From Eledone cirrhosa (lineage: Eukaryota), in contig OZ024745.1 in assembly GCA_964016885.1 (NCBI GenBank), positions 88,474,001 through 88,538,000 of the forward strand: DNA of 64,000 nt, written 5' to 3'. A model generated the notes under the pieces. It was not told the DNA's origin and searched no databases. It worked only from the letters and a program-made list of their open reading frames with translations. Of the stretch, positions 46,103 to 52,214 are shown one piece after another (position 1 is the first letter of the stretch; each line of letters begins with the position of its first letter). The translations under genes were made by a program, and so were the position numbers.

Positions 46103-49100
46103 TGTGTATTCATATGCATACTAGTATTTCAGTATACATATGTGGATGTACATTTTTAACTTAATTGCTTAAGCGTCAGTCATACAAAAGTGAGTTACAA
46201 ACGAAACGAAATTTAATTTCGTTTCGTTATTTGTTTTTATCGTCTCCGTTGAACCGGTACGTACTCACGCTCTATGCAAATTGGTCTGCCCACTACTAAT
46301 TTTCATAGAAAAAGCATATAACGATATGTGCTTTCACGATTCTCTAGAGAAGCCGGAAGATAGGTAAATATTGCTGATGAGATGTAACAACATCGAAACT
46401 AGTCCAATATTCCTTGTCTGGCTTTCTGGAGAATAGAGGAAAGGTGTTTCCTCAAAAACCAGTATGACTCTAAGAACCGGTTTGTCTGTGTGTCTACATA
46501 CGGAATAGCTGGACACTCACAGTAAAGTGACCAGTGAAAACTCGGTACATCTACATATGTACACGTGTGTGTATTCATATGCATACTAGTATTTCAGTAT
46601 ACATATGTGGATGTACATTTTTAACTTAATTGCTTAAGCGTCAGTCATACAAAAGTGAGTTACAAACGAAACGAAATTTAATTTCGTTTCGTTATTTGTT
46701 TTTATCGTCTCCGTTGAACCGGTACGTACTCACGCTCTATGCAAATTGGTCTGCCCACTACTAATTTTCATAGAAAAAGCATATAACGATATGTGCTTTC
46801 ACGATTCTCTAGAGAAGCCGGAAGATAGGTAAATATTGCTGATGAGATGTAACAACATCGAAACTAGTCCAATATTCCTTGTCTGGCTTTCTGGAGAATA
46901 GAGGAAAGGTGTTTCCTCAAAAACCAGTATGACTCTAAGAACCGGTTTGTCTGTGTGTCTACATACGGAATAGCTGGACACTCACAGTAAAGTGACCAGT
47001 GAAAACTCGGTACATCTACATATGTACACGTGTGTGTATTCATATGCATACTAGTATTTCAGTATACATATGTGGATGTACATTTTTAACTTAATTGCTT
47101 AAGCGTCAGTCATACAAAAGTGAGTTACAAACGAAACGAAATTTAATTTCGTTTCGTTATTTGTTTTTATCGTCTCCGTTGAACCGGTACGTACTCACGC
47201 TCTATGCAAATTGGTCTGCCCACTACTAATTTTCATAGAAAAAGCATATAACGATATGTGCTTTCACGATTCTCTAGAGAAGCCGGAAGATAGGTAAATA
47301 TTGCTGATGAGATGTAACAACATCGAAACTAGTCCAATATTCCTTGTCTGGCTTTCTGGAGAATAGAGGAAAGGTGTTTCCTCAAAAACCAGTATGACTC
47401 TAAGAACCGGTTTGTCTGTGTGTCTACATACGGAATAGCTGGACACTCACAGTAAAGTGACCAGTGAAAACTCGGTACATCTACATATGTACACGTGTGT
47501 GTATTCATATGCATACTAGTATTTCAGTATACATATGTGGATGTACATTTTTAACTTAATTGCTTAAGCGTCAGTCATACAAAAGTGAGTTACAAACGAA
47601 ACGAAATTTAATTTCGTTTCGTTATTTGTTTTTATCGTCTCCGTTGAACCGGTACGTACTCACGCTCTATGCAAATTGGTCTGCCCACTACTAATTTTCA
47701 TAGAAAAAGCATATAACGATATGTGCTTTCACGATTCTCTAGAGAAGCCGGAAGATAGGTAAATATTGCTGATGAGATGTAACAACATCGAAACTAGTCC
47801 AATATTCCTTGTCTGGCTTTCTGGAGAATAGAGGAAAGGTGTTTCCTCAAAAACCAGTATGACTCTAAGAACCGGTTTGTCTGTGTGTCTACATACGGAA
47901 TAGCTGGACACTCACAGTAAAGTGACCAGTGAAAACTCGGTACATCTACATATGTACACGTGTGTGTATTCATATGCATACTAGTATTTCAGTATACATA
48001 TGTGGATGTACATTTTTAACTTAATTGCTTAAGCGTCAGTCATACAAAAGTGAGTTACAAACGAAACGAAATTTAATTTCGTTTCGTTATTTGTTTTTAT
48101 CGTCTCCGTTGAACCGGTACGTACTCACGCTCTATGCAAATTGGTCTGCCCACTACTAATTTTCATAGAAAAAGCATATAACGATATGTGCTTTCACGAT
48201 TCTCTAGAGAAGCCGGAAGATAGGTAAATATTGCTGATGAGATGTAACAACATCGAAACTAGTCCAATATTCCTTGTCTGGCTTTCTGGAGAATAGAGGA
48301 AAGGTGTTTCCTCAAAAACCAGTATGACTCTAAGAACCGGTTTGTCTGTGTGTCTACATACGGAATAGCTGGACACTCACAGTAAAGTGACCAGTGAAAA
48401 CTCGGTACATCTACATATGTACACGTGTGTGTATTCATATGCATACTAGTATTTCAGTATACATATGTGGATGTACATTTTTAACTTAATTGCTTAAGCG
48501 TCAGTCATACAAAAGTGAGTTACAAACGAAACGAAATTTAATTTCGTTTCGTTATTTGTTTTTATCGTCTCCGTTGAACCGGTACGTACTCACGCTCTAT
48601 GCAAATTGGTCTGCCCACTACTAATTTTCATAGAAAAAGCATATAACGATATGTGCTTTCACGATTCTCTAGAGAAGCCGGAAGATAGGTAAATATTGCT
48701 GATGAGATGTAACAACATCGAAACTAGTCCAATATTCCTTGTCTGGCTTTCTGGAGAATAGAGGAAAGGTGTTTCCTCAAAAACCAGTATGACTCTAAGA
48801 ACCGGTTTGTCTGTGTGTCTACATACGGAATAGCTGGACACTCACAGTAAAGTGACCAGTGAAAACTCGGTACATCTACATATGTACACGTGTGTGTATT
48901 CATATGCATACTAGTATTTCAGTATACATATGTGGATGTACATTTTTAACTTAATTGCTTAAGCGTCAGTCATACAAAAGTGAGTTACAAACGAAACGAA
49001 ATTTAATTTCGTTTCGTTATTTGTTTTTATCGTCTCCGTTGAACCGGTACGTACTCACGCTCTATGCAAATTGGTCTGCCCACTACTAATTTTCATAGAA

Positions 49101-52100
49101 AAAGCATATAACGATATGTGCTTTCACGATTCTCTAGAGAAGCCGGAAGATAGGTAAATATTGCTGATGAGATGTAACAACATCGAAACTAGTCCAATAT
49201 TCCTTGTCTGGCTTTCTGGAGAATAGAGGAAAGGTGTTTCCTCAAAAACCAGTATGACTCTAAGAACCGGTTTGTCTGTGTGTCTACATACGGAATAGCT
49301 GGACACTCACAGTAAAGTGACCAGTGAAAACTCGGTACATCTACATATGTACACGTGTGTGTATTCATATGCATACTAGTATTTCAGTATACATATGTGG
49401 ATGTACATTTTTAACTTAATTGCTTAAGCGTCAGTCATACAAAAGTGAGTTACAAACGAAACGAAATTTAATTTCGTTTCGTTATTTGTTTTTATCGTCT
49501 CCGTTGAACCGGTACGTACTCACGCTCTATGCAAATTGGTCTGCCCACTACTAATTTTCATAGAAAAAGCATATAACGATATGTGCTTTCACGATTCTCT
49601 AGAGAAGCCGGAAGATAGGTAAATATTGCTGATGAGATGTAACAACATCGAAACTAGTCCAATATTCCTTGTCTGGCTTTCTGGAGAATAGAGGAAAGGT
49701 GTTTCCTCAAAAACCAGTATGACTCTAAGAACCGGTTTGTCTGTGTGTCTACATACGGAATAGCTGGACACTCACAGTAAAGTGACCAGTGAAAACTCGG
49801 TACATCTACATATGTACACGTGTGTGTATTCATATGCATACTAGTATTTCAGTATACATATGTGGATGTACATTTTTAACTTAATTGCTTAAGCGTCAGT
49901 CATACAAAAGTGAGTTACAAACGAAACGAAATTTAATTTCGTTTCGTTATTTGTTTTTATCGTCTCCGTTGAACCGGTACGTACTCACGCTCTATGCAAA
50001 TTGGTCTGCCCACTACTAATTTTCATAGAAAAAGCATATAACGATATGTGCTTTCACGATTCTCTAGAGAAGCCGGAAGATAGGTAAATATTGCTGATGA
50101 GATGTAACAACATCGAAACTAGTCCAATATTCCTTGTCTGGCTTTCTGGAGAATAGAGGAAAGGTGTTTCCTCAAAAACCAGTATGACTCTAAGAACCGG
50201 TTTGTCTGTGTGTCTACATACGGAATAGCTGGACACTCACAGTAAAGTGACCAGTGAAAACTCGGTACATCTACATATGTACACGTGTGTGTATTCATAT
50301 GCATACTAGTATTTCAGTATACATATGTGGATGTACATTTTTAACTTAATTGCTTAAGCGTCAGTCATACAAAAGTGAGTTACAAACGAAACGAAATTTA
50401 ATTTCGTTTCGTTATTTGTTTTTATCGTCTCCGTTGAACCGGTACGTACTCACGCTCTATGCAAATTGGTCTGCCCACTACTAATTTTCATAGAAAAAGC
50501 ATATAACGATATGTGCTTTCACGATTCTCTAGAGAAGCCGGAAGATAGGTAAATATTGCTGATGAGATGTAACAACATCGAAACTAGTCCAATATTCCTT
50601 GTCTGGCTTTCTGGAGAATAGAGGAAAGGTGTTTCCTCAAAAACCAGTATGACTCTAAGAACCGGTTTGTCTGTGTGTCTACATACGGAATAGCTGGACA
50701 CTCACAGTAAAGTGACCAGTGAAAACTCGGTACATCTACATATGTACACGTGTGTGTATTCATATGCATACTAGTATTTCAGTATACATATGTGGATGTA
50801 CATTTTTAACTTAATTGCTTAAGCGTCAGTCATACAAAAGTGAGTTACAAACGAAACGAAATTTAATTTCGTTTCGTTATTTGTTTTTATCGTCTCCGTT
50901 GAACCGGTACGTACTCACGCTCTATGCAAATTGGTCTGCCCACTACTAATTTTCATAGAAAAAGCATATAACGATATGTGCTTTCACGATTCTCTAGAGA
51001 AGCCGGAAGATAGGTAAATATTGCTGATGAGATGTAACAACATCGAAACTAGTCCAATATTCCTTGTCTGGCTTTCTGGAGAATAGAGGAAAGGTGTTTC
51101 CTCAAAAACCAGTATGACTCTAAGAACCGGTTTGTCTGTGTGTCTACATACGGAATAGCTGGACACTCACAGTAAAGTGACCAGTGAAAACTCGGTACAT
51201 CTACATATGTACACGTGTGTGTATTCATATGCATACTAGTATTTCAGTATACATATGTGGATGTACATTTTTAACTTAATTGCTTAAGCGTCAGTCATAC
51301 AAAAGTGAGTTACAAACGAAACGAAATTTAATTTCGTTTCGTTATTTGTTTTTATCGTCTCCGTTGAACCGGTACGTACTCACGCTCTATGCAAATTGGT
51401 CTGCCCACTACTAATTTTCATAGAAAAAGCATATAACGATATGTGCTTTCACGATTCTCTAGAGAAGCCGGAAGATAGGTAAATATTGCTGATGAGATGT
51501 AACAACATCGAAACTAGTCCAATATTCCTTGTCTGGCTTTCTGGAGAATAGAGGAAAGGTGTTTCCTCAAAAACCAGTATGACTCTAAGAACCGGTTTGT
51601 CTGTGTGTCTACATACGGAATAGCTGGACACTCACAGTAAAGTGACCAGTGAAAACTCGGTACATCTACATATGTACACGTGTGTGTATTCATATGCATA
51701 CTAGTATTTCAGTATACATATGTGGATGTACATTTTTAACTTAATTGCTTAAGCGTCAGTCATACAAAAGTGAGTTACAAACGAAACGAAATTTAATTTC
51801 GTTTCGTTATTTGTTTTTATCGTCTCCGTTGAACCGGTACGTACTCACGCTCTATGCAAATTGGTCTGCCCACTACTAATTTTCATAGAAAAAGCATATA
51901 ACGATATGTGCTTTCACGATTCTCTAGAGAAGCCGGAAGATAGGTAAATATTGCTGATGAGATGTAACAACATCGAAACTAGTCCAATATTCCTTGTCTG
52001 GCTTTCTGGAGAATAGAGGAAAGGTGTTTCCTCAAAAACCAGTATGACTCTAAGAACCGGTTTGTCTGTGTGTCTACATACGGAATAGCTGGACACTCAC

Positions 52101-52214
52101 AGTAAAGTGACCAGTGAAAACTCGGTACATCTACATATGTACACGTGTGTGTATTCATATGCATACTAGTATTTCAGTATACATATGTGGATGTACATTT
52201 TTAACTTAATTGCT
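46103..52214 (+). mobile_element. Tandem array of a 465-bp hammerhead-containing unit (retrozyme-like), 13 units plus 67 bp
   Basis: Exact 465-bp periodicity, also visible in the ORF track; no unit differences seen; long (TA)n on both sides; one HHR per unit. Confidence 0.92.
46367..46411 (+). ncRNA. Minimal type I hammerhead ribozyme, repeated every 465 bp (13 copies); predicted cleavage after 46404+465n
   Basis: aatattg-CTGATGA-gatgt aaca acatc-GAAA-c ta g-TC/caatatt; canonical core, GUC site, palindromic ACTAGT stem III; stem I extends over 46339-46434. Confidence 0.93.

Follow-up and report, generated by a model that had tools for sequence, protein, structure and literature searches.

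A tandem array of a 465-bp noncoding unit, with a hammerhead ribozyme in each unit, lies in the 64,000-nucleotide stretch of the Eledone cirrhosa genome that we analyzed (assembly GCA_964016885.1, contig OZ024745.1, positions 88,474,001 to 88,538,000; hereafter the window). The array is one recent insertion of a large, recently active, dispersed family. We are highly confident that the element is a retrozyme mobilized by Penelope-like elements (PLEs). It would be a retrozyme without long terminal repeats (non-LTR), that is, a nonautonomous PLE, and its arrays were probably made by rolling-circle reverse transcription of one monomer circle.

The 465-bp Array and Its Hammerhead

On the + strand, exact periodicity spans 46103..52214. 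Tandem Repeats Finder gave a period of 465, 13.1 copies, and 100% matches. Direct comparison gave 13.14 units, with no difference among the 13 full ones, which confirms the 13.1 identical head-to-tail units of the original prediction made from the sequence of the window. The array forms a single arm embedded in (TA)n, the target microsatellite extending over 45985..46102 on the 5′ side and over 52215..52292 on the 3′ side, the latter being the likely side of priming. When the monomer is numbered from window position 46405, the array begins at monomer position 164 and ends at 230. Its 5′ end joins the target within a TA/TG-rich hairpin (monomer 142–214; 46546..46618, + strand), which aligns with the true (TA)n hairpin of a 480-nt sister family described below. 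The array contains 13 predicted cut sites and 12 complete cut-to-cut monomers (46405..51984, + strand). As noted previously, there is no credible open reading frame (ORF): the longest ATG-started frame in the circle encodes 61 amino acids, on the antisense strand. Noncoding and with a GC content of 37.4%, the unit has the composition of non-LTR retrozymes.

Thirteen hammerhead cores recur at 46374 + 465k, up to the core at 51954. In the first unit, the type I hammerhead (46367..46411, + strand) is composed of a 7-bp stem I (46367–73/46405–11), the CUGAUGA core (46374–80), a 5-bp stem II with G10.1–C11.1 (46381–85/46390–94), the GAAA (46395–98), and a palindromic 2-bp stem III (46398–46403). 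It ends with a GUC triplet whose C17 is at 46404 (+ 465k), and cleavage is predicted after 46404. Stem I extends over 46350..46424 through a bulge, an internal loop, and eight further base pairs, and closes the predicted circle. The motif had been described as an intact minimal type I hammerhead. It is intact in the 13 units of the window, and its core is so in most of 104 array consensuses. It is not minimal, as a short palindromic helix III and an extended stem I with an internal loop are the "canonical" metazoan layout of Cervera 2014. A profile scan, suggested with the original prediction, recovered a match to Rfam HH9 (38.9 bits, E 4.3e-08), which lies under the HH9 gathering score of 52; at gathering score, no Rfam family matches anywhere in the window. 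Matches to miRNA and sraA at the E-value level were rejected as low-complexity hairpin noise. We shuffled the unit 20,000 times, keeping its dinucleotides, and no shuffle passed the hammerhead descriptor.

The cut-to-cut monomer folded as a circle has a predicted energy of −151.5 kcal/mol (z −9.7, 60 shuffles), and the antisense circle one of −127.7 kcal/mol (z −5.7, 60 shuffles). Pairing of the helix III palindrome between two copies is predicted at −6.2 kcal/mol. Among 71 haplotypes, double changes affect the pairs 443:454 in hammerhead stem II, 36:45, and 19:412, each perhaps representing one event. For the presence of ribozymes in both polarities, which is a criterion for viroid-like agents, we found hammerhead matches on the + strand only.

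A Dispersed Family with Penelope-Like Ends

A search of the 3.0-Gb genome identified 276 family matches in the 33 scored regions out of 591 candidates. Exact hammerhead 18-mers are present in at least 9,455 copies. Exact junctions between position 301 and (TA)n number 1,869, against 0 for the reversed control, and junctions of the ~228 end with TA number 536 on the forward strand, the reverse count being inflated by overlaps. The arrays are thus dispersed, as had been proposed. We read 116 arrays out of thousands, in two sets: an identity-picked set of 21 loci, made of the window and the 20 arrays nearest to its sequence (L031–L050), and an unbiased set of 99 loci on contig C1, chosen by the 301 end so as to include its first 100 tail junctions. 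The 21 near-identical arrays fall into four haplotypes, and every array is pure. Two of the 20 nearest arrays are identical to the window haplotype and the other 18 carry one or two fixed differences, in support of the recent insertion initially proposed. In the tail-picked set, the number of sites that distinguish an array from the window monomer ranges from 7 to 45 (79 arrays). The family therefore comprises subfamilies, and the window haplotype sits on a very young branch. Two loci, L078 and L079, 17.7 kb from each other, carry the same insertion with identical breakpoints, reflecting either a segmental duplication or an assembly duplicate.

The 3′ ends of the insertions are of two fixed kinds, with a spacing of about 73 nt: one lies 228 nt and the other 301 nt downstream from the ribozyme cut. 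At the 21 identity-picked loci, 33 of the 34 visible 3′ ends are at 224–232 or 300–301; the number of loci with two divergent arms is 14. Of the 96 arrays that were selected through their 301 end, 61 have two arms; in 54 of the 57 such arrays that are closed, the second end is at ~228, and TA follows 71 of the 75 short ends. The median length of the 301 arm is 592 nt, and 9 of 90 reach five units; the longest arm seen has 31 units (L054, G000:C1:5738082-5752753). PLEs are recognized by a tail restricted to one end, an inverted 5′-truncated copy, and a (TA)n bias (Craig 2021, PMC8557442). The family shows these same features: two fixed 3′ ends with a one-end tail, 5′ truncation with an inverted arm, and biased insertion into (TA)n. 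In vitro, the PLE tail corresponds to the stretch between two internal reverse transcriptase (RT) start sites (Frangieh 2024, PMC11167929). The corresponding 73-nt PLE-type tail lies between monomer positions ~228 and 301 (46633..46705, + strand) and contains a 13-bp hairpin; it is internal in each unit and missing at the 3′ end of the window array. The array ends are thus set by internal priming and not by the ribozyme. As the ends follow PLE-type RT starts and (TA)n targeting, the element is a nonautonomous PLE rather than the viroid-like integrant originally predicted. Its classification as a non-LTR retrozyme holds, with a type I hammerhead in each noncoding unit, dispersed copies, and a self-paired predicted circle.

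Templates of the Arrays

To count substitutions, we left out L079 (a duplicate of L078), the indel-rich L036, hits shorter than 80 nt, ragged ends, and columns beside gaps. In 19 arrays with at least three full units, the median distance is 0.39% within arrays versus 2.64% between them. Only two of 3,081 array pairs are identical. The arms of the 69 two-arm arrays differ from each other at a median of one site, compared with a median of 16 from other arrays. In L050, L065, L081, and L101, private changes are fixed in all of their 13 to 19 units. The occurrence of its own haplotype in all units of nearly each array calls for a step from one monomer to many. The young arrays contain 20 substitutions in 68,793 nt (2.9e-4), and RT error is of the same order. 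In the youngest lineage, the arrays at nine unlinked loci each comprise 10 to 18 full units and differ internally by 0 to 0.25%. The 5′ ends are compatible with a uniform spread over the unit (chi-square p 0.11), and one of 186 is at the cut. Comparison of 73 inversion junctions revealed no sharing except for one 20-mer in three pairs, indicating that donor junctions are not being copied. Near-clonal arrays, haplotypes common to both arms, and unshared junctions suggest that the earlier proposal of a rolling-circle cDNA of one circle is probably correct.

We propose the following cycle. Tandem arrays would be transcribed on the hammerhead strand. From the sequence and the literature, the hammerheads, probably acting as dimers through the palindromic helix III, would release 465-nt monomers that a host ligase would close into structured circles. 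A PLE protein with RT and GIY-YIG domains would then nick (TA)n and prime internally at ~301 or ~228; the resulting insertion anatomy is observed, and the enzyme is a presumed one. Priming from both target strands would produce two divergent arms, one ending per site. To judge from clonality, the RT would lap one circle and drop off at a random point, and all units of an insertion would carry the sequence of that circle. The window array would be a single-arm insertion of about 13 laps from the short site (~228).

Several observations weigh against this model. All the evidence for rolling-circle copying comes from genomic DNA. Four older arrays (L054, L090, L116, and L108) are mosaic, with blocks of unit variants that recur along the array; one monomer circle leaves this pattern unexplained, and it points to multimeric templates or later expansion at the DNA level. 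In 12 of the 69 two-arm arrays, the arms differ by at least four sites. As 116 of thousands of arrays were read, long homogeneous donors may exist among the others. Single-unit changes show a weak RT-wobble bias (77 vs. 54, p 0.067). Position 17 is U instead of C in 190 of 304 units of the unbiased loci, and U17 makes a weaker cleavage triplet than C17. In Frangieh 2024, the main PLE substrate in vitro was RNA that had not been cleaved, mutation of the hammerhead left insertion unaffected, and the hammerhead cut coincided with no ends in RNA-seq data. Cleavage was reported for one of nine Xenopus dimers (Li et al. 2026, bioRxiv 10.64898/2026.07.22.740005). Finally, a search of 694 kb, made up of flanks and of 30 PLE loci from one Hydra family (the 5′ pseudo-LTRs [pLTRs] of full-length copies lying outside), revealed no PLE with sequence in common with the unit.

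Part of these data would be accounted for if PLEs integrated uncleaved linear or multimeric circular read-through RNA, or cleaved monomers linked through scarless template jumping, with a weak or dispensable hammerhead. The abundance of U17 and the mosaic arrays with recurring unit variants favor such templates, the near absence of 5′ ends at the cut fits them too, and multimers of axolotl retrozymes have been seen to accumulate (Cervera and de la Pena 2020, PMC7229834). However, insertions as short as these, with a median of 592 nt, should then frequently have been copied through the 5′ junction of their donor, whereas no junction is shared; nor do uncleaved templates readily account for the haplotype specific to nearly each array and fixed in all its units, or for an arm of 31 units (C1:5.738–5.752 Mb). 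We regard this origin as rather unlikely. It is still less probable that short PLE-type insertions were expanded later in place, like satellites, by unequal crossover or gene conversion. This process is raised in the discussion of Li et al. (2026), and it would explain the repeated blocks of the older arrays, such as the three-unit variant block of L090 that recurs six units later. Yet the arrays of the youngest lineage are already long and homogeneous at unlinked loci, and both inverted arms are often long with a common haplotype. Moreover, the array-fixed changes are strand-asymmetric and structure-preserving, and the single-unit changes are neither. An assembly or polishing artefact of a multicopy repeat as the source of the perfect identity and copy number is very improbable: although L036, full of single-base indels, shows that accuracy varies, array-private variants are fixed across both arms, junctions are unique, and in contigs of public run X1, which may come from the source sample, the unit closes on itself and 12 ends at 46705 lead into TA. 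An artefact cannot account for the family or its anatomy, but solely for the exact unit count of the window array. Other runs were not used: X3, from another study and with another organism label, gave one self-closing 495-nt single-haplotype contig with seven differences, a shape that tandem DNA also gives, and X5 and X6 gave low-depth pieces.

Rolling-circle copying from one circle predicts that a change present in the RNA becomes fixed array-wide. We defined array-fixed changes as the terminal branches of a tree of 88 arrays, in a strict version and in hammerhead-strand orientation. Among 71 such changes, 29 are A>G and 9 T>C, compared with 26 and 35 among 260 single-unit changes. At paired positions, the base pair is kept by 28 of 44 array-fixed changes versus 51 of 170 single-unit changes. 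This asymmetry, pair-keeping and rich in A>G, shows that the sense RNA is filtered between generations. Three A>G changes cluster in one stem in each of L065 and L085, and 2 of the 29 A>G sites follow a G; editing by ADAR would explain both the clusters and the scarcity of 5′ G, which is suggestive only. Selection for changes tolerated as G-U pairs predicts the same A>G direction as editing. Changes of A-U to G-U and of C-G to U-G are in a ratio of 19:5 against 19:16 (p 0.06), and structural selection by itself may account for the pattern. A threshold set beforehand, private fixed A>G at least three times T>C in 39 fresh loci, was missed: the ratio was 5:4 for changes in at least two units and 3:1 for those in at least three. 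The tree method gave 10:4 in these loci (p 0.18), and the A>G share in the fresh set, a post hoc measure, was 10/26 versus 11/109 (p 0.001). Because the threshold was missed, editing is only a lead. Possible, although doubtful, is thus the extended scenario in which single circles, some of them edited by ADAR from A to I, would be copied by a PLE RT for up to tens of laps from the two fixed internal sites, the edits becoming fixed array-wide and seeding subfamilies. Editing has been named as a possible source of the heterogeneity of mussel circles (Cervera and de la Pena 2020), and our literature searches found no report of retrozyme editing.

Neighboring and Related Elements

The same (TA)n tract receives, separately from the array, the 3′ end of a Hydra-type PLE (52293..52915, − strand) with a pLTR, its own hammerhead at 52420, and a 67-nt tail. 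A 5′-truncated, frameshifted Hydra-type ORF encoding RT and GIY-YIG domains (55146..56898, + strand) belongs to a young family and represents a candidate helper type. This Hydra-type PLE has the same end layout, with 21 of 33 ends at two sites, and its RT starts are located 27 and 94 nt after its own hammerhead cut. We scored 150 copies at 97–100% amino-acid identity, many with 758-codon open frames. By eye, the ORF of L179 contains RWR (RWK-like), DKT, and a CxCX5C linker, lacks CCHH, and is associated with a (TA)n target and a hammerhead. By its motifs, the neighboring ORF appears to fit the Hydra clade as described in Craig 2021, whose supplement records Hydra PLEs with a (TA)n preference for Octopus bimaculoides. 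In a protein homology search, the best named relatives showed 44–53% identity and one Argonauta protein 34%; a Pfam search with six PLE fragments of the window returned no family. The genome contains 62,445 PLE candidates, among which are many families beyond the Hydra family of the window. The similarity of the Hydra family of the window to the unit is confined to the low-complexity monomer 142–214 and was rejected as a link; the family represents a candidate helper type.

The region 52293–64000 is a cluster of copies of this young Hydra-type PLE with long low-complexity 3′ regions. Besides the 3′ end next to the array, hammerhead-bearing 3′ ends are found at 54577–55156 (− strand), 59929–60471 (+), and 3972–4097 (+), and a second ORF piece at 61026–62783 (−). 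More PLE-like pieces of ORFs, together with four or more additional hammerhead-like motifs, occur at 25535–26590, 27371, 29097–30902, 32195, 34868–37315, and 39142, which makes the window a (TA)n hotspot of PLE insertion. Long perfect inverted repeats beside TA tracts at 58750–59075 and 59236–59355 (arms of about 160 and 55 bp, by eye) are probably tiny two-arm insertions of other elements. Between 6343 and 22522, ORFs of non-LTR retrotransposons are nested and in part broken; they have restriction-like endonuclease motifs and copies 92–97% identical, and we take them to be R4/Dong-like.

A sister retrozyme family has a 480-nt unit with a GUA triplet, the same palindromic helix III, and a long internal (TA)n hairpin. 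Its copies are located at L126:3840-5001, L146:3186-3965, L120:4756-5001, L102:4236-4545, and L088 ~3756-4069. It is identical to the 465-bp unit at 269 of 511 alignment columns, and it has two 3′ ends against TA, at 324 and 265, the long one at the corresponding position of the alignment. L171 (289 and 599, two copies 310 bp apart) and L168 (607) contain a further hammerhead family, also with a palindromic helix III, which is perhaps a third retrozyme.

Non-LTR retrozymes were defined by Cervera and de la Pena (2020), who detected circles in coral, mussel, and axolotl and proposed their mobilization by PLEs. Like them, the 465-bp family consists of tandem noncoding repeats with one type I hammerhead per unit and a GC content under 45% (here 37%), a strongly self-paired predicted circle, and thousands of copies co-occurring with PLEs. 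Unlike them, it is known here from DNA alone, and no sequence link to a pLTR was found in the 694 kb searched, whereas a pLTR similarity is described in Xenopus (Li et al. 2026). The original prediction had considered the unit unusually long; it falls inside the reported range of 51–972 bp for retrozymes (Li et al. 2026), and the repeats of Dolichopoda pDo500, each with a hammerhead, measure 463–505 bp (PMC2808323). Both the kind of element and its size were therefore already known. In contrast, the available main texts of Cervera and de la Pena (2020) and Li et al. (2026), supplements aside, report no retrozyme with two-site ends, inversions, (TA)n targeting, or clonal arrays. The family resembles the endonuclease-encoding (EN+) PLEs of the Hydra and Naiad type, nonautonomous Chlamys elements such as MRC1 (Craig 2021), and PAc (Frangieh 2024), with which it shares (TA)n targets, 5′ truncation, inversion, a one-end tail, and multicopy head-to-tail nonautonomous insertions. 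The 465-bp unit differs from EN+ PLEs by the absence of an ORF and by a tail of 73 nt, versus 30–40 nt published and 67 nt in the Hydra PLE of this genome. Its RT starts also lie farther from the cut, at 228/301 nt versus 27/94 nt in the neighboring PLE.

Newt satellite 2 and Schistosoma Sm-alpha are other hammerhead satellites; the present family differs from hammerhead satellites by its dispersed short arrays with transposon ends, and to our knowledge the species and sequences of these satellites are unrelated to the unit. Viroids and viroid-like circular RNAs are small, structured, noncoding circles with a hammerhead. The 465-nt element is distinguished from viroids by a ribozyme on one polarity only, a branched predicted fold, and thousands of genomic copies with PLE ends, and its sequence carries no apparent sign of RNA-to-RNA replication. 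Our literature searches found no cephalopod retrozyme, the supplement of PMC7229834 and the bioRxiv supplements, which may hold one, lying outside them. The available part of a 2026 Octopus vulgaris repeat annotation does not mention ribozymes.

The spread of animal retrozymes by PLE-driven rolling-circle copying has been proposed since 2020 on the basis of co-occurrence and pLTR similarity. The 465-nt family is large, still active, and found beside young intact PLE ORFs. Within a known kind of retrozyme, it is marked by unusually clear traces of what is probably repeated copying from single circular RNAs. As its insertions yield predicted RT starts, target, and template, the hypothesis becomes directly testable in vitro and in the genome. 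The family also constitutes a natural record of RT error, of processivity, with arms of up to 31 laps, and of filtering or editing at the RNA level. If the editing scenario were true, the genome would record the full life cycle of an animal retrozyme.

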